Assembly (NCBI RefSeq): GCF_042660085.1
Contig: NZ_JBHSTI010000002.1
Coordinates: 360,001 to 392,000 of the forward strand
Direction of reading: 5' to 3'
Length of the DNA: 32,000 bases
Source: Longivirga aurantiaca
GTDB taxonomy: Bacteria; Actinomycetota; Actinomycetes; S36-B12; CAIYMF01
Shown in pieces: positions 2,995-12,336 of this stretch; the first letter of the stretch is position 1; the number at the start of each line of letters is the position of its first letter. The position numbers were made by a program, and so were the translations under genes. The notes below the pieces were generated by a model that saw only the letters and a list, made by a program, of their open reading frames with translations, made no database searches and was not told the DNA's origin.

Positions 2995-3074
2995 GGCACC
3001 TCCCCGGACTCGTCGTCGCCCGGCATCGTCCCACGTCAGGGGGTTCCTCGGCATCCACGCCGCACGCGCCGCGG

Positions 3075-4454
3075 CTACTCCTCCTTGAGCGCGGCGTACC
3101 GGCGCAGCGACTCCTCGCGCTCCTCGGCGTGCTCGACGATCCGCGGCGGGTAGTCGGGCGCGAGGAGCGGCGCGTCCCACGGCTCGTGCGCGTCCTTCCC
3201 GGCGAGGCCCCGCAGCTCGGGCACGTAGCGGCGCACGTAGTCGCCATCGGGGTCGAAGCGCAGGCCCTGCGTGACCGGGTTGAAGATGCGGAAGTAGGGC
3301 GAGGCGTCGGTGCCGCTGCCCGCGACCCACTGCCACCCCTGCTGGTTGCTCGCGAGGTCGCCGTCGCGCAGGTGCTGCAGGAACCAGCGGGCGCCGCGCT
3401 GCCACGGCACGTGCAGGTCCTTGACCAGGAAGCTCGCCACGACCATGCGCACGCGGTTGTGCATCCAGCCCTCGGCGAGCAGCTGGCGCATGCCGGCGTC
3501 GACGAACGGGTAGCCGGTGCGGCCCTCGGTCCAGGCCAGGAATCGCTCGTCGGCGAGCGGCCCGGAGTCGTGCTGCATCCGCGCGAACCTCGGGTCGAGC
3601 CACGTGCGGGCGGACTCGGGCGCGGTGCAGAGGACGTCCGCGTAGAACTCGCGCCAGGCGATCTCCTTGCGGAACACCTCGTGCCCCCGCGAGTCGTCGA
3701 GGTCCGCGAGCAGGGTGCGCGGGTGGATCTCGCCCCACTTGAGGTGCGTCGACAGGCCCGATGTCCCCGCGAGGTCGGCCCGGTCGCGGAGGTCGGCGTA
3801 CGACGCGAGCCCGTCCGCCCGGAAGGCCTCCCAGCGGTCGTGCGCGGCCTCCTCCCCGGACGGCGGCAGAACGGTGATGCCGAGGTCGGGCTCGTCGGGG
3901 ATCCCGTCGGTCGCGAGCGGGCCCGTGCCGTCCCGTCGCCAGGCCGGCCAGCGCTCGGGGTCGGGCGCGGGCGCGCGCCACCCGTGCGCGAGCCAGGCAC
4001 GGAAGAACGGGGTGTAGACGCGGTAGGGCGTGCCGTCGCCCTTGCGCACCCGCCCCGGTGCCACGGCGTACGGCGACCCGGTGGCGACCAGCTCGCGACC
4101 GGCGCCGGCGAGGGCCGACGCGACCGAGGCGTCCCGCCGGACGCCGTACGGCGCGAAGTCGGCGGCGACGTGCACGGTGCGGGCCCCTGCCGCGGCGGCG
4201 ACCTCGGGCACGACGTCGAGCGGGTCGCCGTGGCGCACCACCAGCCGGCCGTCCAGCGACTCGTCCAGCGCGTTCAACGACCGCACGAGGCAGGCGCGGC
4301 GCACGGCGCCGGCCGGGTCCCACAGGGTGCGGTCGAGCACGAACAGCGCCACGACCTCGTCGTCGCCGTCGGTGCGCGCCGCCTCGAGGGCCGCGAGCAG
4401 CGCCGGGTTGTCGTGCCGGCGCAGGTCTCGTCGGAACCACAGGACGCTCGGCAT
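3075..4454 (-). CDS. phr: deoxyribodipyrimidine (CPD) photolyase
   Basis: Starts MPSVLWFRRDLRRHDNPAL. Contains TSGLSTHLKWGEIHPR, AWREFY, GWMHNRVRMVVASFL and NQQGWQWVAGSGTDASPYFRIFNP. ATG at 4454 is in frame; 459 aa. Confidence 0.93.
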   Translation of the reverse strand: MPSVLWFRRDLRRHDNPALLAALEAARTDGDDEVVALFVLDRTLWDPAGAVRRACLVRSLNALDESLDGRLVVRHGDPLDVVPEVAAAAGARTVHVAADFAPYGVRRDASVASALAGAGRELVATGSPYAVAPGRVRKGDGTPYRVYTPFFRAWLAHGWRAPAPDPERWPAWRRDGTGPLATDGIPDEPDLGITVLPPSGEEAAHDRWEAFRADGLASYADLRDRADLAGTSGLSTHLKWGEIHPRTLLADLDDSRGHEVFRKEIAWREFYADVLCTAPESARTWLDPRFARMQHDSGPLADERFLAWTEGRTGYPFVDAGMRQLLAEGWMHNRVRMVVASFLVKDLHVPWQRGARWFLQHLRDGDLASNQQGWQWVAGSGTDASPYFRIFNPVTQGLRFDPDGDYVRRYVPELRGLAGKDAHEPWDAPLLAPDYPPRIVEHAEEREESLRRYAALKEE

Positions 4455-4613
4455 GCTGCCGAGGCTAGGTGCGCCGCGAGCCGGGCGCAGGTCGGGACGT
4501 GACCAGGACGACTCGGGGTTAGGTGAGGGAACGCTGCGACCCGACGGGCAGTAGGACAAGATGGGCGACGAGTTGATCTGCCCGGGCACCACCAGCGAAG
4601 GACTCAGCCGGCC

Positions 4614-5297
4614 GTGAGCGACCTCATCGACACCACGGAGATGTATCTCCGCACCATCTTCGAGCTCGAGGAAGAGGGCATCGTCCCGCTGCGGGCGCGC
4701 ATCGCCGAGCGGCTCGGCCAGTCCGGCCCGACGGTCTCGCAGACCGTGGCGCGCATGGAGCGCGACGGCCTGCTCTCCGTCGAGGGTGACCGCCACCTCG
4801 AGCTGAGCGACGCCGGCCGCGCGATGGCGACCCGCGTCATGCGCAAGCACCGCCTCGCGGAGTGCCTGCTCGTCGAGGTCATCGGCCTCGACTGGGAGGA
4901 CGTGCACGCCGAGGCCTGCCGTTGGGAGCACGTGATGAGCGAGCGCGTCGAGCGCCGCATCCTCGAGCTGCTCAAGAACCCGACCGTGTCGCCGTACGGC
5001 AACCCGATCCCGGGGCTCGAGGAGCTCGACCGCGACGCCGCCGCCTCCGACCTCTCCGGCCTCATGACCCTCGACAAGGTGGTGGGCGAGAGCTCGACCC
5101 GCGTCACGGTCGCGCGCATCGGCGAGCCGATCCAGAACGACGCCGCCCTCATGGCCTCGCTGCACCGCGCGGGTGTCGTGCCGGCCGCGACCGTGAAGGT
5201 CGTGTCGTCCCCGGGCGGGGTCCTCGTGGGCAGTGCCGGCGAGTACGCCGAGCTCGACTCGGCGACGGCGTCGCACGTCTTCGTCACCAAGGGCTAG
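4614..5297 (+). CDS. ideR: iron-dependent repressor, DtxR/IdeR family, with a C-terminal SH3-like domain
   Basis: DTTEMYLRTIFELEEEGIVPLRARIAERLGQSGPTVSQTV...MRKHRLAECLL...HAEACRWEHVMSE is near-colinear with mycobacterial IdeR as I recall it. GTG start; 227 aa. Confidence 0.92.
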   Translation: MSDLIDTTEMYLRTIFELEEEGIVPLRARIAERLGQSGPTVSQTVARMERDGLLSVEGDRHLELSDAGRAMATRVMRKHRLAECLLVEVIGLDWEDVHAEACRWEHVMSERVERRILELLKNPTVSPYGNPIPGLEELDRDAAASDLSGLMTLDKVVGESSTRVTVARIGEPIQNDAALMASLHRAGVVPAATVKVVSSPGGVLVGSAGEYAELDSATASHVFVTKG

Positions 5298-5319
5298 CAG
5301 CCCCGCCGCGCCTCCCAGC

Positions 5320-5351
5320 GACGCCCGCCCGACCTCCGTCGGGCGGGCGTC
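5320..5351 (+). terminator. perfect 14-bp GC hairpin (GACGCCCGCCCGAC-CTCC-GTCGGGCGGGCGTC) after ideR
   Basis: Read directly; begins about 23 nt after the ideR stop. No U-tract. Confidence 0.55.
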
Positions 5352-5605
5352 GGAGCGTCGGGGCCGCCACCCGTACGGCGCAGCCCCCGGCCGCCGACGC
5401 CCGCTGCCACACCCCGGGCTGGGCCGTTCGGGGGATGACCGGTCCGGTTCGGGCCCGATCCGGTCACGATGCGTCACCGGGCGCTGCTCCGGATGGGCCG
5501 TTCCGCCTACCGGTTTTCGGACGCCAGCCGGACGCGGGGCCGGCGTCCGCCCTGGTCTGCTTCGCCCGTGCCCGGGCAGGTCCGGGCCGTGGGAAGGGAG
5601 CGGGG

Positions 5606-6862
5606 ATGTTCCACGAGCACGAGAGGGCACGAGCAGCCACGGTCGACCTGACGGATGCGGTGGCGCCCGCCCCGCAGTGGAGTGCCGGTCGGGCCCGATC
5701 ACGCCGGGCGGCGCTGGAGCTCGCGGCGATCACGGCCCTCGCCTGGGTGGCCGTCGTGGTGCTGAACGACCCGTCGCGCGAGGCGTGGACGCAGAACGAC
5801 CACCGGTGGCTGGTGCCGGTGCTCGTCCTGCTGGCGGTCGCGGGCAACCGCGTGCGGGCGCGTCTCGGCCGCTCGCGCGGGGAGCGCACGGTCGTCTTCG
5901 ACGCCACCGGCGCCGCGCTGATCGGGGCCGTGCTGCTGCTTCCTCCGCTGTGGTTCCCGGTGGTCGCGCTGGCCTCGGCCTGGCGGCCGGACCGGCGTCG
6001 GCTCACCCTGAACACCGCCATCCGCGTCACCGCCATGTCGGTCGCGATGCTGGCGTACGAGCTCGCGACGTTCATGCTGGACGAGGCCGGCCTCCTCGTC
6101 GACACCGTCCGCGTCGCCGGGCTCCTCGCGGCGGGGGCGGCGTACCTCGCGACCGAGGCCGTGGTGCACCGGCGCCACCTCGACGAGGGCGACGGACTCG
6201 GCGACGAGATCCCGGGCCTCGGTGCGGAGCTCGTCCGACGCGACTCGCCCGGAGTGGCGCTCGGCCTGCTGGTCGTCGCGCTGCTCGCCGTCTCGCCCGT
6301 CACCGCGGTGCTGCTGGTCCCGCTCGCCTGGCTGGTCGTCCAGATGCTCCGGGCGCAGGAGCAGCTGCTGCTCGCGGGCACCGACTACAAGACCGGCCTG
6401 CTCACGTACGAGTCGTTCCGGCGGTGCGCCGCGGCCGAGATCGCCCGCGCCCGCCGCCAGGCCCGGCCGCTCGTCGCGGTGATGGTCGACCTCGACGGCA
6501 TGAAGAGCGTCAACACGCTGCACGGCCACCTCACCGGCGAGATCGTCCTGGCCTCGATCGGCGCTGTCCTGCGCGGCGCCATGCGTGCTGAGGACGTCGT
6601 CGCCCGCTTCGGCGGGGACGAGTTCTGCCTCCTGCTGCCCGACACCGACCTCGAGGGCGCGCTCGTGCTCGTGGAGCGGCTGCGCGTGGTGGTCGCCACG
6701 ACGGCGCTCACCCCGGGCGACGAGCCGCTCTACCGGACGGCGTCGTTCGGCCTCACCGGCCTGCGGATCGTGGACGACGTCGACTCGCTGCTCGGGCGCG
6801 CGGACTCGGCCCTGAGCCGGGCCAAGGAGGCCGGCAAGGACCGCCTGGCCTACGAGCTCTGA
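5606..6862 (+). CDS. membrane-anchored diguanylate cyclase (multi-TM N-terminus + GGDEF domain with RxxD I-site)
   Basis: ATG at 5606 is preceded by GGGAAGGGAGCGGGG. The N-terminal half is hydrophobic. The C-terminus has DYKTGLLTYESF, VMVDLDGMKSVNTLHGH and RAEDVVARFGGDEFCLLLP, with RAED five residues before GGDEF. 418 aa. Confidence 0.87.
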   Translation: MFHEHERARAATVDLTDAVAPAPQWSAGRARSRRAALELAAITALAWVAVVVLNDPSREAWTQNDHRWLVPVLVLLAVAGNRVRARLGRSRGERTVVFDATGAALIGAVLLLPPLWFPVVALASAWRPDRRRLTLNTAIRVTAMSVAMLAYELATFMLDEAGLLVDTVRVAGLLAAGAAYLATEAVVHRRHLDEGDGLGDEIPGLGAELVRRDSPGVALGLLVVALLAVSPVTAVLLVPLAWLVVQMLRAQEQLLLAGTDYKTGLLTYESFRRCAAAEIARARRQARPLVAVMVDLDGMKSVNTLHGHLTGEIVLASIGAVLRGAMRAEDVVARFGGDEFCLLLPDTDLEGALVLVERLRVVVATTALTPGDEPLYRTASFGLTGLRIVDDVDSLLGRADSALSRAKEAGKDRLAYEL

Positions 6863-7192: not shown

Positions 7193-7834
7193 ATGGCGTC
7201 TGCTCGCGCACGCCTGGGCGCGGCCGTCTCGGCTGCCCTGGCGATCACGTTGCTGCCCGCGTTCACCGCGTCCGCCTCGGCGGCCGTGGCCGACGACACC
7301 GGTACGTCGACCTCGACGATCACCGGCACCTCGGTGGTCACCTCGACCTTGACGACCAGCAGCCTCTCGACCTCGACCACCGCGGTGAGCACCACTGCCC
7401 CCGCGTCGTTCTCCCTGCCGGTCTCGCGGACCGGGTACGTCACCCTGAGCGCGGCGGCCAAGGCCGACCCGGTCGTGCGCGGCAAGGCCGTGGCCCAGAC
7501 CGCCGCCCGCTTCGCCGGCGTCCCGTACGTCGCTGGCGGCACGAGCCCCGCCGTCGGCTTCGACTGCTCCGGCTACACGCGCTACGTGTACTCGCGCCTC
7601 GGTATCTCGCTGCCGCGCGTCTCGCGCGACCAGTACGCCGCAGCGACGCCGATCCCGCGGAGCACGGCAGTCAAGGGCGACCTCGTGTTCTTCTACAGCA
7701 CGAGCGGCCGGATCTACCACGTGGCGATCTACGCGGGGAACGGCTACATCTGGCACTCGCCGTACCCCGGGAAGCGTGTGATGCTGGAGCGCATCTGGAC
7801 CTCGTCCTGGAAGGTCGCGCGCGTCCGCGCCTGA
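7193..7834 (+). CDS. secreted NlpC/P60-family peptidoglycan endopeptidase
   Basis: Signal peptide MASARARLGAAVSAALAITLLPAFTASASA, followed by a Thr/Ser-rich linker. The catalytic region is GVPYVAGGTSPAVGFDCSGYTRYVY...GDLVFF...HVAIYAGNG. Confidence 0.9.
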   Translation: MASARARLGAAVSAALAITLLPAFTASASAAVADDTGTSTSTITGTSVVTSTLTTSSLSTSTTAVSTTAPASFSLPVSRTGYVTLSAAAKADPVVRGKAVAQTAARFAGVPYVAGGTSPAVGFDCSGYTRYVYSRLGISLPRVSRDQYAAATPIPRSTAVKGDLVFFYSTSGRIYHVAIYAGNGYIWHSPYPGKRVMLERIWTSSWKVARVRA

Positions 7835-7848
7835 CCCTCCCCCTGATC

Positions 7849-7890
7849 GACGAAGGCGGCCTGCCATCCCCCGTGCGGGCCGCCTTCGTC
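7849..7890 (+). terminator. perfect 13-bp hairpin (GACGAAGGCGGCC...GGCCGCCTTCGTC) after the NlpC/P60 gene
   Basis: Read directly; starts about 15 nt after the stop codon; 16-nt loop. Confidence 0.6.
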
Positions 7891-7946
7891 CTGTCCGGGC
7901 AGGGGGTGCGGCGCATTGACGCGTTCATGCGCCAGCATGGTCGCCT

Positions 7947-8840
7947 GTGACGACCTGGCGGGACGCGCTGCACGGGCTTGCTGCTGACGACGTGGCCCAG
8001 CTCGACCACGCCCTCGGGTTCCGGCTCGGCCGGGAGGACCTCGTGCGGTCGCTCATCGACCCGCGCGGCCACCTGTTCCAGCGCCTCGAGTACGTCGGCG
8101 ACTCGATCCTCGACGCGGTGGTGGTGAGCGAGCTCGTGCGGCTCGAGCCGTGGGACGAGCCCTCGCTGGCGCTGATCAACGGCGAGCAGCAGGCGATGGT
8201 CTCCGACCATGCCCTCGGGCGCGTCGCTGCGCGCCGGGGGCTGCCTCGCGTCCGCACGTTCCAGGCGTCGCGGCACCGGCTCGCCGACCGCATCGAGGCT
8301 GCGATCGGCGCGATCTGGGCCGACCGCGGTATCGAGGATGCGGCCACAGCGGCGTACGACCTCGTCGTGCGACCAGCGCTCGACGGGCTCCCTCGCCGCG
8401 TCGACCTGCCGGTGGCGGCGCGGGCCGAGCGGTACGAGGCGGCGTCGCGGCAGCTCGGGCACGAGCCGGTCGAGCCGGTGTGGTTCGGCGCCGCTGCGGA
8501 GCCCGGGCCCACCCGCCGTCGCCTCGCGGTCGTGGGCGACTCGGTCATCGAGGCCGCGATGTCGACCGCCCAGTACGTCGAGGAGCCCGAGGCCAGCGAG
8601 GCGGTGCTGAGCGAGGAGCGCAGGGGTGCGACGTCGAACGCGACCGTGTCCCGCCTGGCCCACGACCTGCGGCTCGAGCGCCGCCACGACGACCGGACCG
8701 ACCGACGGGCGATGGCCGACGAGGTGCAGGCGCTGGTCGGCGCGGTGGCACTGGACGGCGGGATCCGCGCGGGGCTCCTCGTGGCGTCAGGCGTGCTCGG
8801 CCGCACGTTCGCGCCCGGACCTCTAGCCTTCTCGACGTGA
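7947..8840 (+). CDS. protein with two tandem RNase III catalytic-type domains and no dsRBD
   Basis: 297 aa, GTG start. Block 1 is QRLEYVGDSILD (aa 45-56) ... LADRIEAAIGAIWAD (aa 112-126). Block 2 is RRLAVVGDSVIE (aa 191-202) ... MADEVQALVGAVALD (aa 256-270). Both match the ERLEFLGD ... ADxxEAxxGA RNase III signature pattern. Confidence 0.75.
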   Translation: MTTWRDALHGLAADDVAQLDHALGFRLGREDLVRSLIDPRGHLFQRLEYVGDSILDAVVVSELVRLEPWDEPSLALINGEQQAMVSDHALGRVAARRGLPRVRTFQASRHRLADRIEAAIGAIWADRGIEDAATAAYDLVVRPALDGLPRRVDLPVAARAERYEAASRQLGHEPVEPVWFGAAAEPGPTRRRLAVVGDSVIEAAMSTAQYVEEPEASEAVLSEERRGATSNATVSRLAHDLRLERRHDDRTDRRAMADEVQALVGAVALDGGIRAGLLVASGVLGRTFAPGPLAFST

Positions 8841-9646
8841 CCGTTCCCCAGAGCCCCGAGTCCCTCGCCGTCCTCGCCGACGGCTCCCTCTCCGGCCGGA
8901 CGGCCCTCGTCACCGGCGGTGGCAGCGGCATCGGACGAGCGAGCGCCCTGCTCCTCGCCCGGATGGGCGCGCGCGTCTGCGTGGTGGGGCGCACGGCCGA
9001 CAAGCTCGACGAGACGGTGGCGCTCTCGACGGCGGCCGGGCACCCCGAGCCGATGAGCACCGCGGTCTGCGACGTCCGCGAGCCCGAGCAGGTCGACGTC
9101 GTGCTCGACGCCGTCCTCGCCGACCTCGGACGCATCGACATCCTGCTGAACAACGCGGGGGGCCAGTTCGTGTCTCCGGCAGAGTCGTTGTCGCACAAGG
9201 GGTTCCGCGCGGTGACGCGGCTCAACCTCGATGCCACGTGGTACATGACGGCCCGTGTGGCCGAGCGCTCGATGCTGCCGAACGGCTACGGCAAGGTCAT
9301 CAGCATCACGATGTCCCCGCACCGGGGCACGCCGGGGATGGCGCACTCCTCGGCCGCGCGCGCGGCGGTGGAGTCGCTCACCCGCACCCTCTCGGTCGAG
9401 TGGGGTCCGCGCGGCGTCCGTGTCGTGGCGATCGCCCCGGGCTTCGTGCACACCGACGCGATCGCGAAGTACGGCATCGACACCTCGGTGCTCTCGAGCA
9501 TCGTGCCGCTGCCGCGCATGCAGAGCGCCGACGAGGTGGCCGCGCTGGTCGGCTTCCTCGCCTCGCCCGCCGGCGACTACATCACCGGCACGACGATCAC
9601 CGCCGACGGCGGTCTCGACAACGCCGGACCCGGCATCCTCGGCTGA
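8837..9646 (+). CDS. SDR-family oxidoreductase (enoyl/dienoyl-CoA reductase-like)
   Basis: An in-frame GTG at 8837 forms a GTGA overlap with the upstream stop. Contains TALVTGGGSGIGRA, NNAGG and the Pro-Gly region VVAIAPGFVHT; 269 aa. The ORF-track start at 8150 is an Arg-rich extension in another frame across the upstream (RNase III-domain) gene. Confidence 0.85.
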   Translation: MTVPQSPESLAVLADGSLSGRTALVTGGGSGIGRASALLLARMGARVCVVGRTADKLDETVALSTAAGHPEPMSTAVCDVREPEQVDVVLDAVLADLGRIDILLNNAGGQFVSPAESLSHKGFRAVTRLNLDATWYMTARVAERSMLPNGYGKVISITMSPHRGTPGMAHSSAARAAVESLTRTLSVEWGPRGVRVVAIAPGFVHTDAIAKYGIDTSVLSSIVPLPRMQSADEVAALVGFLASPAGDYITGTTITADGGLDNAGPGILG

Positions 9647-9656
9647 TTCGGAGCTT

Positions 9657-10904
9657 TCAGCCGCGGTCGAGGGCGAGGCGCAGGGGTACGTCGGCGAAGC
9701 CGTGCTGGTCGGGTGCCACGGCGAGCACCTGGTGCAGCTGGATCATGTTGCGGTGGAAGCCCATCTGCGACGCCGCGAGGTACAGCTTCCACACCCGGGC
9801 CTTGCCCATCCCTACCTCGGCGACCGCCTCGTCCCAATGCTCCTCGAGGTTCCGGAGCCAGTCGGCGAGGGTCAATGCGTAGTGCTCGCGCAGGTTCTCC
9901 TCGTGCCGCACCTCGAACCCCTGGTCCTCCATGGCCGACACGATGCGCCCGATGGGCACGACCTCGCCGTCCGGGAACACGTACCGGTTGATGAAGCCGT
10001 TCTTGTAGTGCGTCCGCGAGCCCGTGTCGGTGCGCGTGATGCAGTGGTTGAGCAGCCGGCCGGTCGGGTTGAGCCGTGACCTCAGGAAGCCGAAGTACGC
10101 CGGGTAGTGGGCAAGGCCGATGTGCTCGGTGAGCCCGATCGAGGAGATCGCGTCGAAGCCGGTCTCCGGCACGTCGCGGTAGTCCTGGTGCCGCACCTCG
10201 GCGAGGTGCCCGAGGCCGTCGGCCTGGATCGCCTCGCGCGCCCACTGCGCCTGCTGCTCGGACAGCGTGACGCCGATCGCCTTGACGCCGTAGTGCTTCG
10301 TGGCATGCCGCACGAGGCCGCCCCATCCGCAGCCCACGTCGAGCAGCCGGTCGCCGCGCTGCAGCCCGAGCTTGCGGCAGACGAGGTCGAACTTCTCCTC
10401 CTGCGCCTCCTCGAGCGTCGCGTCGGCCTTCGGGTAGACGGCGCACGTGTAGGCCATCGACGGGCCGAGCACCCATCGGTAGAACGTGTTGCTCACGTCG
10501 TAGTGGTGGCTGATGGCGTCGGCGTCGCGCCGCTTGGAGTGCCGCGACCCCCCGAGCCGCACCTCCTCCGGCGGCGGCGGCTCGCGGCGGAGCGCGAAGG
10601 GAGCGAGCGCGCGGTACAGCCGCAGCTTCTCGGAGCCGGTCGGCTCCGTCACACCGAGCCGGGCCAGCCGGTCGAGCGCCGTGAACAGGTCGCCGTGCAC
10701 CTCGAGCTCGCCGGCGACGTATGCGCGGGCGAGGCCGAGCTGTCCTGGGGCCGACATGAGGAGCGCCACCGCGCGCGGCGATCGGATGTCCAGGCGCACG
10801 TCGCAGTCGATCGGTCCGTGCCTGCTGCCGTCGTACGCCGTCAGCGCGACGTCGACGTCGTCCCCCACCACCAGCGACACCATGTCTGCCAGCTTCATCG
10901 CCAT
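9657..10904 (-). CDS. bfaB: SAM-dependent fatty-acyl methyltransferase, cyclopropane-fatty-acyl-phospholipid synthase family (BfaB/UfaA1-like)
   Basis: ATG at 10904 (MAMKLADM) is in frame; 415 aa. Contains HYDVSNTFYRWVLGPSMAYTCAVY, the SAM motif LLDVGCGWGGL, and SIGLTEHIG. Confidence 0.88.
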   Translation of the reverse strand: MAMKLADMVSLVVGDDVDVALTAYDGSRHGPIDCDVRLDIRSPRAVALLMSAPGQLGLARAYVAGELEVHGDLFTALDRLARLGVTEPTGSEKLRLYRALAPFALRREPPPPEEVRLGGSRHSKRRDADAISHHYDVSNTFYRWVLGPSMAYTCAVYPKADATLEEAQEEKFDLVCRKLGLQRGDRLLDVGCGWGGLVRHATKHYGVKAIGVTLSEQQAQWAREAIQADGLGHLAEVRHQDYRDVPETGFDAISSIGLTEHIGLAHYPAYFGFLRSRLNPTGRLLNHCITRTDTGSRTHYKNGFINRYVFPDGEVVPIGRIVSAMEDQGFEVRHEENLREHYALTLADWLRNLEEHWDEAVAEVGMGKARVWKLYLAASQMGFHRNMIQLHQVLAVAPDQHGFADVPLRLALDRG

Positions 10905-10938
10905 CGCTCGCCCCTTCGCCCGCGCTCCTTCGCGCGAT

Positions 10939-12336
10939 CTAGCCCCGACCCACGGTCTTGGTCCACATGTCCGGGAGCCTGCCTCCCGGGTCGTACGTCG
11001 CGCGGAGCCCGGAGTAGGCGTCCCCGCCGTAGATCCGCGCAAACTCCTCGGGCGGGTAGAACGCCGTCGAGTAGAGCGACTTCTTCCCGCCCAGCTCGGT
11101 GACGACCCGCTCGATCCGCCGGTTGACCCGGCCCTCGGCCGGCGTGACGCCCTCGGGAAGCGGAACGGTCGACCAGAAGCCGACGTTGACATACGTGACC
11201 GACGGGTCGAGCTCGTAGAGCGACCACGTCGCACCGGGATCGCGCTGGCGCAGCGGACACACCCACACCGGCTCGATGCCCACCTCGCGGTGGAAGAAGT
11301 CGAGGAACTCCGACAGCGCCCCGACCGGCACCTCGACGTCCTGCACCACCTGCTCGCGCGCGGGGCGACGCCGCGCGGAGTCGAGCCGCGCGGAGAACGA
11401 CGTACGCCGGTCGAGCGCCACGAGCTTCCAGTAGACGTCCGAACGCAGCTTGGACGTGGGCCACAGGCGGCGCACGAGGGGCTTCTGCACCCCGAACGCC
11501 CGGGAGCACCAGAACCAGTCGGTGTCCCAGCGCCACAGGTAGTCGTGCGTGGTCAGCAGATCGGTGCGGCGCTGCTGGATCGAGCGGTAGTAGATGTGCT
11601 CGCCGGTGTAGTCGCTCGGGGCGCGGCTCGCGGTCTCGGCGTACGTCGCCAGCGTCAGGTACGACTCGGTCGCCGAGAACACCGTGCCGTCGACGTAGTC
11701 GACCCTGGTGCCGTCGTACGAGCCGGACGCCGTGATGTCGGAGATGGCCGTCGCGAGCGATGCGGCGTCGCCGCAGGGCACGTGCCGCAGCGCCATGAAC
11801 GGCGTGACGGGCTCGAGCTCGATCCGCAGGCGCAGCGCGTAGCCGAGCGAGCCGTACGAGTTCGGGAAGCCGTGGAACAGCGCGGAGTGCTCGTTGTCGA
11901 GGGTCGCGGTCACGACGCGCCCGTCGCCGGTGAGCACGTCGAGGTCGAGCACCGACTCGTGCGGGCAGCCGTTGCGCCACGACGCGCTCTCGATCCCGAG
12001 CCCGGTGACCGCGCCGCCGAGCGTGATCGTGCGCAGCTGCGGCACGCACAGCGGCACGAGGCCGTGCGGCAGGGTCGCCGCCACCAGCTCCTCGTACGTC
12101 GTCATGCCGAGGACATCGGCCGTGCGCGCCTCGACGTCGACCTCCAGCACTCCGCGGAAGGCCGCGACGTCGAGCCCCGGCGTGCCGGTCGCCGATCGGG
12201 CGCGGAAGAGGTTGGACGTGGTCTTGGCCAGCCGCACGGGCGCCCCGGCCGGGAGCGCGCGGTACTGCCCCACCAGTGCGTCGACGGCCCGGTCGTACGC
12301 GCTGCGGGTCACGGTCGGTGTGACGGTGAGAGCCAC
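10939..12336 (-). CDS. bfaA: FAD-binding oxidoreductase (FAD_binding_4 type), BfaA-like 10-methylene reductase
   Basis: 465 aa, GTG start. Contains the FAD-binding region TLGGAVTGLGIESASWRNG. Sits immediately upstream of the CFA-synthase-like gene with a 34-nt gap, matching the described bfaA-bfaB pair. Confidence 0.82.
   Translation of the reverse strand: MALTVTPTVTRSAYDRAVDALVGQYRALPAGAPVRLAKTTSNLFRARSATGTPGLDVAAFRGVLEVDVEARTADVLGMTTYEELVAATLPHGLVPLCVPQLRTITLGGAVTGLGIESASWRNGCPHESVLDLDVLTGDGRVVTATLDNEHSALFHGFPNSYGSLGYALRLRIELEPVTPFMALRHVPCGDAASLATAISDITASGSYDGTRVDYVDGTVFSATESYLTLATYAETASRAPSDYTGEHIYYRSIQQRRTDLLTTHDYLWRWDTDWFWCSRAFGVQKPLVRRLWPTSKLRSDVYWKLVALDRRTSFSARLDSARRRPAREQVVQDVEVPVGALSEFLDFFHREVGIEPVWVCPLRQRDPGATWSLYELDPSVTYVNVGFWSTVPLPEGVTPAEGRVNRRIERVVTELGGKKSLYSTAFYPPEEFARIYGGDAYSGLRATYDPGGRLPDMWTKTVGRG

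Follow-up and report, generated by a model that had tools for sequence, protein, structure and literature searches.

The window analyzed here is a stretch of 32,000 nucleotides from Longivirga aurantiaca (NCBI RefSeq assembly GCF_042660085.1, contig NZ_JBHSTI010000002.1, positions 360,001 to 392,000), and the gene under study encodes a protein with two RNase III domains (RIIIDs) in tandem. The gene lies at positions 7947..8840 of the window on the plus strand, as do all features described below unless stated otherwise, and is the longest open reading frame (ORF) of its frame, with a GTG start codon, a TGA stop codon and a product of 297 amino acids (aa). The GC content of this ORF at codon positions 1, 2 and 3 was 0.81, 0.51 and 0.92, respectively, in a window with a GC content of 73%, which is the pattern expected for a real gene, and a start of the form M/V-T-x-W-R was found at the same place in homologs. 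From 5' to 3', the window contains a GGDEF gene, a cyclic di-AMP (c-di-AMP) riboswitch, an NlpC/P60 gene, a hairpin, the RNase III gene and a short-chain dehydrogenase/reductase (SDR) gene, with genes for a CMAS-type methyltransferase and a FAD-oxidase on the opposite strand beyond the SDR gene. This gene order recurs in related metagenome-assembled genomes (MAGs).

The original prediction, made from the letters of the window alone, held that the 297-aa protein carries two RIIIDs and lacks a double-stranded RNA (dsRNA)-binding domain (dsRBD), and Pfam analysis bore out both statements. PF00636 (Ribonuclease_3) and PF14622 each matched two stretches of the protein, and each half independently matched the profiles of the RNase III superfamily when scanned alone. 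PF00636 matched the N-terminal half at aa 45-128 (E = 1.8e-8, score 35.5) and the C-terminal half at aa 191-272 (E = 1.1e-9, score 39.3), both above the curated cutoff of 27, and PF14622 matched the two halves with E values of 7.7e-8 and 8.7e-9, respectively. Aligned over 89 aa, the two halves shared 31% identity (E = 1e-7). Neither a dsRBD (dsrm) nor any further domain besides the RIIID families was detected by Pfam at E <= 10. The score against TIGR02191, the NCBIfam model of canonical RNase III, was 60.1 bits, which is below its cutoff of 166.25 bits.

Domain 1 (aa 42-135; 8070..8351), supported by the Pfam match of the N-terminal half and by residue conservation, has an intact catalytic site. 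Its signature motif, QRLEYVGD (aa 45-52; 8079..8102), contains E48 and D52, the equivalents of E. coli E41 and D45, and its second motif, ADRIEAAIG (aa 113-121; 8283..8309), carries D114 and E117. A highly conserved loop, GLPRVRTFQASRHRLA (aa 98-113), leads into the second motif, and loop and motif together occupy 8238..8309. The linker and the N-terminal helix of domain 2 (aa 147-186; 8385..8504) form the least conserved part of the protein. Domain 2 (aa 188-274; 8508..8768), supported in the same way in the C-terminal half, has the RNase III fold, but its pseudo-active site is degenerate, and conserved in that state. Its signature motif, RRLAVVGD (aa 191-198; 8517..8540), has A194 at the E41 position and its second motif, ADEVQALVG (aa 257-265; 8715..8741), has Q261 at the E117 position. 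All four motif blocks lie exactly where the original prediction had placed them, and in Drosha and Dicer chains their counterparts in the alignment were the motifs ERLEFLGD and (N/D)xxEALIGA. ADEVQALVG aligned to MANCFQALIGAV in the Drosha chains 6lxd and 5b16, and a glutamine at the E117 position was also present in Drosha chain 6v5c; we take these three chains to be engineered inactive mutants. The structure-search matches included 1yz9, and because this complex of Aquifex E110Q with dsRNA has been solved, a glutamate-to-glutamine change at the E117 position is compatible with dsRNA binding.

To assess conservation, 40 members that share 50-87% identity with the 297-aa query were aligned. 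The four residues of the domain 1 catalytic tetrad (E48, D52, D114 and E117) were each present in 40 of 40 members, as was the whole QRLEYVGD motif. Domain 2 was equally constant at A194, Q261 and D258 (each 40/40), and because A194 and Q261 are kept in every member, the dead site is a fixed family character and not the decay of a single genome. The tetrad of domain 1 and the alanine and glutamine of domain 2 had thus been read correctly from one sequence, as had the two aspartates that domain 2 retains in the window protein (D198 and D258). In the family, position 198, which corresponds to D45, was D in 20 members, N in 19 and I in one.

The constraint on the protein extends well beyond the catalytic positions. 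Ten residues of the aa 98-113 loop region and the adjoining motif were invariant (P100, V102, R103, F105, S108, R111, L112, D114, R115, and E117), and mean conservation was 0.83 for the loop, 0.66 for the equivalent loop of domain 2 and 0.87 for the signature helix of domain 2, which forms the domain interface. Domain 2 also retained many non-catalytic RIIID residues, including E218, S222, R225, R226, and N231. Median pairwise dN/dS ratios (NG86) were 0.32 for domain 1 and 0.31 for domain 2, with 0.07-0.17 for the closest pairs; these ratios are rough at this GC content at third codon positions (GC3) and serve for comparison only. Mean pairwise amino acid identity was 0.74 in domain 1, 0.70 in domain 2 and 0.48 in the linker (aa 147-186). 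Both domains are under similar purifying selection.

A word-indexed protein search detected 90 clusters, one 100% identical to the window protein (P0001) and 89 others, drawn from JGI, ENA, NCBI, and Logan; nearly all members were 293-303 aa long with the same two-domain Pfam content. The clusters had generic names such as 'dsRNA-specific ribonuclease' and 'ribonuclease III domain-containing protein', and the domain content is already visible in databases through such tags. Seventeen loci were found in species-representative genomes, all of them MAGs assigned to Candidatus Nanopelagicales, Micrococcales, Actinomycetes, or Actinomycetota, and wherever a label was given for the approximately 90 clusters and 17 MAG loci it was one of the Actinomycetota. 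A search for plasmid-borne homologs of the two-domain protein found none. PADLOC gave no match for the 297-aa protein, four relatives or the SDR, and an anti-phage defense system was rejected as a candidate function. One MAG locus (L016, CAWGZO010000001.1) has its NlpC, SDR, and FAD-oxidase genes split into several frames and is probably a long-read assembly with indel errors, in which case P0090 is a fragment. In cluster P0087, a frameshift seems to have joined the RNase III gene to the SDR gene.

The structure of the protein was predicted as a monomer with AlphaFold2 from the 40-sequence alignment and compared with the Protein Data Bank (PDB) by Foldseek. The model was all-helical with a mean predicted local distance difference test (pLDDT) score of 91.9 and a predicted template modeling (pTM) score of 0.92, and the linker region was folded with confidence, with helices at aa 161-169 and 177-184. 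The best PDB match was human Drosha (5b16_A), with a query-normalized template modeling score (TMq) of 0.69 and a root mean square deviation (rmsd) of 4.1 Å, followed by Dicers of mammals, plants, fly, and Giardia (0.57-0.69). Single-domain RNase III enzymes of Aquifex, E. coli, and Campylobacter aligned at an rmsd of approximately 2.8-3.3 Å over about 140 residues and scored only about 0.36-0.40 because they cover roughly half of the model. A 41%-identical relative gave a model with a pTM of 0.93 and a TMq of 0.75 to Drosha and 0.78 to DCL3. Domains 1 and 2 are thus predicted to form a Drosha/Dicer-like intramolecular pseudo-dimer, and the RNase III-like pairing within one chain that the original prediction had raised is what both models contain. 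The architecture and the dead site of the protein are close to certain.

An exhaustive profile search of 1.84 billion representatives detected 115 proteins at E <= 1e-10. The best 150 matches included several dozen 50%-identity clusters of 220-330 aa proteins that aligned across both domains. Read against the family profile, almost all kept the catalytic tetrad of domain 1. In domain 2, the E41 position was A, V, R, or G; the D45 position was A, S, G, T, C, N, or D; and the E117 position was Q, L, R, K, E, or D. Judged by these residues, the wider family, with proteins of 230-330 aa, repeats the plan of a live N-terminal domain followed by a degenerate C-terminal domain. Profile searching for named or cultured relatives yielded metagenomic proteins with generic names only. 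Both sites are degenerate in P0096 (284 aa), which has S and G in domain 1 and A, G, R, and K in domain 2 and is possibly a pure RNA-binding pseudoenzyme. A hidden Markov model (HMM) of the family separated members cleanly from canonical RNase III in a metagenome scan, with scores of at least 175 bits for the former and at most 72 bits for the latter. In profile-profile comparison by hhalign, the two domains scored 105 and 83 against canonical bacterial RIIIDs and 57 against each other, so that by profile similarity each domain appears closer to canonical bacterial RIIIDs than to the other domain. These scores fit what appears to be an ancient duplication within the gene, after which the two copies diverged; the comparison covered bacterial RIIIDs and so does not address a relation to the eukaryotic duplication.

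Other tandem arrangements of RIIIDs were encountered in the same searches. P0159 (439 aa), which is apparently bacterial, combines a live and a degenerate RIIID with a dsRBD. P0138 (499 aa), also apparently bacterial, has the degenerate RIIID first and the live one second, and a member of its identical cluster (P0309) lies on a 4.44-Mb NCBI contig. The low-GC protein P0152 (441 aa) is another apparently bacterial tandem-RIIID protein with one degenerate domain. In P0101 (503 aa), P0118 (517 aa), and P0110 (1016 aa), an insert of about 150 aa separates the live from the degenerate RIIID. This insert has a D...E...D pattern that is loosely RNase H-like by eye, and a search for its identity gave no Pfam match and no informative sequence match in the PDB. 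The original prediction had called fused RIIIDa/RIIIDb pairs the hallmark of Drosha and Dicer; these enzymes do carry the pair, but it is not exclusive to them, given such bacterial architectures and plant RNC1 (PMC3867540).

The genomic context of the two-domain gene differs by clade. In a large sister clade with proteins of about 255-265 aa, the gene directly follows sbcD-sbcC at 13 distinct loci (L018, at 3008-6768, and L025, L033, L034, L036, L043, L045, L046, L047, L053, L055, L056, and L057). All 12 sbcC-RNase III junctions inspected had a stop/start overlap, which was GTGA in 11 and ATGA in one, and the arrangement persists though SbcC identity between loci drops to 45%. From these overlaps, the gene appears to be translationally coupled to sbcD-sbcC. 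An acyltransferase gene usually comes next after the RNase III gene at these loci. Elsewhere the gene adjoins carD or an Ada/MGMT-like gene, and the contexts include NlpC/SDR, CarD, and IdeR/CMAS neighborhoods; the close relative L020 has a photolyase gene about 3.5 kb upstream. No SbcCD was found in the 32-kb window. ORF-based annotation of four metagenomic contexts (L044, L049, L050, and L078) was too noisy at this GC content.

Three contexts that differ in other respects, namely L020 (42-1169), L018 (1-1186), and the P0084 locus, share a citrate synthase gene a few kb upstream of the RNase III gene. The RNase III gene may reside in an old conserved chromosomal neighborhood whose intervening genes have been replaced by others.

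In RNase III, each RIIID provides one metal-dependent site that cuts one strand, and the valley of the dimer binds the duplex (PMC3867540). When one subunit of an RNase III heterodimer is inactive, dsRNA is nicked, and the trypanosome endonucleases KREN1-3 are thought to be paired with the catalytically dead KREPB4/5, with the result that only the mRNA strand is cut (PMC3867540). By analogy with these systems and from the predicted structure, we favor the reading that the 297-aa protein is a monomeric two-domain RNase III-type endoribonuclease whose one live site nicks one strand of a duplex, and we give this statement as a whole a probability of roughly 0.55. Domains 1 and 2 would pack like the two subunits of bacterial RNase III or like RIIIDa and RIIIDb of Drosha and Dicer. 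Domain 1, with a complete two-metal catalytic site, would cut, and domain 2, which has lost the equivalents of E41 and E117 and, in half of the family, that of D45 as well, would be kept as a structural and RNA-binding partner that supplies the interface and the second wall of the duplex-binding valley. The protein would bind an A-form duplex or stem and hydrolyze only the strand facing domain 1, leaving a nick and not a staggered double-strand cut.

Because the protein has no dsRBD, its targets should be chosen by the catalytic core, and the part responsible is, by analogy with Mini-III, probably the invariant loop at aa 98-113 beside the active site. By position, this loop corresponds to the alpha5-alpha6 or RBM4 region, which determines where RNase III and Mini-III cleave (PMC5141509). 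We infer that only one strand is cut, that the substrate is RNA and that the loop plays this part.

Several points weigh against this reading. D198 and D258 remain in the window protein, and domain 2 could conceivably retain weak metal binding. AlphaFold2 cannot tell an intramolecular pair of domains 1 and 2 from a domain-swapped or higher oligomer in which two copies of domain 1 are paired. The gene contexts compared held no clue to an RNA substrate. Finally, the sbcDC operon of the sister clade hints at a role other than classical RNA processing.

The second of these points leads to an alternative in which two chains dimerize through their domain 1 copies to form a two-site core that cuts both strands, with domain 2 acting as an RNA-binding module that replaces the dsRBD. 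Bacterial RIIIDs are described as homodimerizing (PMC5141509; PMC8708148), and both the absence of a dsRBD and the many non-catalytic RIIID residues kept in domain 2 would suit such a module. Both AlphaFold2 models (pTM 0.92-0.93), however, pack domain 1 on domain 2, the whole chain superposes on the RIIIDa/b pair of Drosha and Dicer (TMq 0.69-0.78), and the domain 2 helix that forms this interface is highly conserved (0.87). We consider pairing of two domain 1 copies unlikely.

The sbcDC-linked clade bears on another alternative, in which the family has a part in DNA metabolism and its substrates are RNA:DNA hybrids or further duplexes other than dsRNA; the live site would cut the RNA strand while the dead domain faces DNA, and the window copy would be a stand-alone version of an SbcCD-associated factor. 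The 13 loci with sbcD-sbcC immediately upstream and their overlapping junctions, the clade that adjoins an Ada/MGMT-like gene and the photolyase gene of L020 all point in this direction, and an enzyme with one site suits a substrate with a single cleavable strand. On the other side, the sbcDC association belongs to a clade that is only about 30-35% identical and not to the window gene, which has no SbcCD within 32 kb, and the contexts vary between clades. To our knowledge, cleavage of hybrids by RNase III-family enzymes is not established, and we count this against the proposal as well, which we regard as doubtful.

A broader conjecture goes further. The family would comprise natural strand-selective nickases for A-form duplexes, asymmetric as their true substrate has one cleavable strand, and the coupling of the sister clade to sbcDC would mark a hitherto unknown RNase III-type accessory factor of the bacterial Mre11/Rad50 nuclease. 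Such a nickase could, for example, cut the RNA in R-loops or RNA:DNA hybrids, or act on a single arm of a specific RNA duplex with the guide strand spared. We offer this conjecture tentatively, and as a whole it has a low probability.

A non-catalytic RNA-binding or chaperone protein is improbable. The tandem RIIIDs of plant RNC1 serve RNA binding only (PMC3867540; PMC8708148) and the distant relative P0096 is degenerate at both sites, but a domain 1 tetrad present in 40 of 40 close members and in nearly all distant ones would be unexpected without catalysis. An artificial fusion of two adjacent one-domain genes by a frameshift or assembly error, of the kind that some related records do contain (the split neighbors in L016 and the SDR fusion in P0087), is effectively excluded by the same uninterrupted ORF of about 296 aa in 90 independent clusters from four sources and in 17 MAG loci, by the clean separation of the family HMM, by the confidently folded linker and by the coding-type GC3 along the whole ORF.

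The protein shares features with several known systems. Like Drosha and Dicer, which gave the best whole-chain structural matches, it has two RIIIDs in one polypeptide with predicted intramolecular pairing. In Drosha and Dicer both sites are active, whereas in the 297-aa family none of the 40 members has the E41 or the E117 equivalent in domain 2; and those enzymes are large, with a dsRBD, PAZ, helicase, or P-rich region, whereas the bacterial protein consists of RIIIDs only. No specific sequence kinship to Drosha and Dicer was evident from the domain comparison with bacterial RIIID profiles. The closest functional analog would be KREN1-3 with KREPB4/5, in which a live RIIID also has a degenerate RIIID partner (PMC3867540). 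The KREN and KREPB proteins, however, are separate polypeptides with zinc-finger and PUF modules in a large complex, and in the bacterial protein the pair is fused in cis with nothing attached.

Engineered E. coli RNase III heterodimers, which nick dsRNA (refs 39, 40 in PMC3867540), likewise have one intact site per dimer, as the pseudo-dimer appears to have from its residues, and their site is inactivated when the E117 position, occupied here by Q261, is substituted. Those heterodimers are laboratory constructs with dsRBDs, in contrast to the natural, fused, dsRBD-less and conserved family described here. The lack of a dsRBD is shared with bacterial and plastid Mini-III, which consists of the catalytic domain only and chooses its targets by parts of the core, namely the alpha4 helix and the alpha5b-alpha6 loop (PMC5141509); the loop of the present protein is similarly conserved. 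Mini-III has a single RIIID and forms a homodimer with two active sites, whereas the present protein has two RIIIDs per chain and one intact site.

Plant chloroplast RNC1 also has tandem RIIIDs, which are expected to self-associate into a dsRNA-binding fold (PMC3867540), but both of its domains are catalytically silent, unlike the intact and invariant domain 1 of the 297-aa family. Canonical bacterial RNase III (rnc, TIGR02191) has the RIIID fold and the signature motifs found in domain 1; class 1 rnc, however, combines one RIIID with a C-terminal dsRBD, in place of which the present protein has a second RIIID, in keeping with its TIGR02191 score below cutoff. The family fails the defining features of class 1 rnc, Mini-III, Drosha/Dicer and RNC1 and, by analogy, would work most like a cis-fused heterodimer of a live and a dead RIIID.

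Reviews of bacterial RNase III describe one RIIID per chain and a homodimer, and the only proteins that they name with tandem domains are Drosha, Dicer, and plant proteins (PMC8708148; PMC5141509; PMC3867540). Against these reviews, the two-domain, half-dead protein is an undescribed variant of bacterial RNase III, and the full-text literature, of which coverage was incomplete, yielded no report of a bacterial RNase III with tandem domains or one dead site, nor of a link between SbcCD and RNase III. The family indicates that bacteria too have fused two RIIIDs into a predicted intramolecular pseudo-dimer, with a fixed live/dead asymmetry for which the only other reports concern engineered heterodimers, besides a proposal for the editing complexes of trypanosomes. 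Should the single-strand cut be confirmed, the protein would be a compact (about 30 kDa), dsRBD-free dsRNA nickase, useful as a reagent, and a simple model for the division of labor between the domains of Drosha and Dicer. The sbcDC-coupled sister clade would provide an unexpected and testable link of the RNase III fold to the processing of DNA ends or hairpins.

Upstream of the RNase III gene in the window, a c-di-AMP riboswitch of the ydaO type (RF00379; 7009..7194), detected with 62.7 bits against a gathering score of 38, directly precedes the NlpC/P60 peptidase gene (7193..7834). Pairing of this riboswitch with NlpC/P60 peptidase genes is known in Actinobacteria. A GC-rich, terminator-like hairpin of 16 bp without a U-tract (7849..7890) lies just 3' of the NlpC/P60 stop codon, and the fold of positions 7835-7949 has a free energy of -65.1 kcal/mol (z = -4.1). 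The hairpin is present at the closest loci, and two others (L003 and L010) have unrelated inverted repeats at the same position, which suggests that it is a terminator for the NlpC/P60 gene. With a strong hairpin between them, the RNase III gene and the riboswitch-controlled NlpC/P60 gene are unlikely to be co-transcribed. A possible -10 element, CAGCAT (7933..7938), lies 8 nt before the GTG start codon, and most of the diverged loci compared have a (C/G)AnnnT block at 7-8 nt before the start codon, suggesting a separate promoter that would give rise to a leaderless mRNA. A scan for consensus promoters and terminators found nothing either way.

Downstream, the SDR oxidoreductase gene (8837..9646; Pfam adh_short_C2, E = 5e-49) overlaps the RNase III gene by a GTGA, with its GTG at 8837-8839 and the TGA of the RNase III gene at 8838-8840. 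The original prediction had noted this overlap and considered the pairing of functions odd; the overlap is real, but a synteny survey showed that the pairing is not conserved beyond the closest relatives. The 4-nt overlap was limited to the window and to L001/L020, L002, and L015, farther members had a gap of about 80-300 nt before the SDR gene, and an adjacent SDR gene was absent at L005 and at the 50%-identical P0084 locus. Because only the closest relatives have the overlap, the SDR was rejected as a functional partner, and the pairing is probably local operon compaction. The GGDEF gene (4862..6862) and the CMAS methyltransferase gene (9657..11234, minus strand) were called as longest ORFs of 666 and 525 aa, respectively; the orthologs called in L020 are 415 and 413 aa long, and the true starts of both genes are probably internal to the longest-ORF calls.

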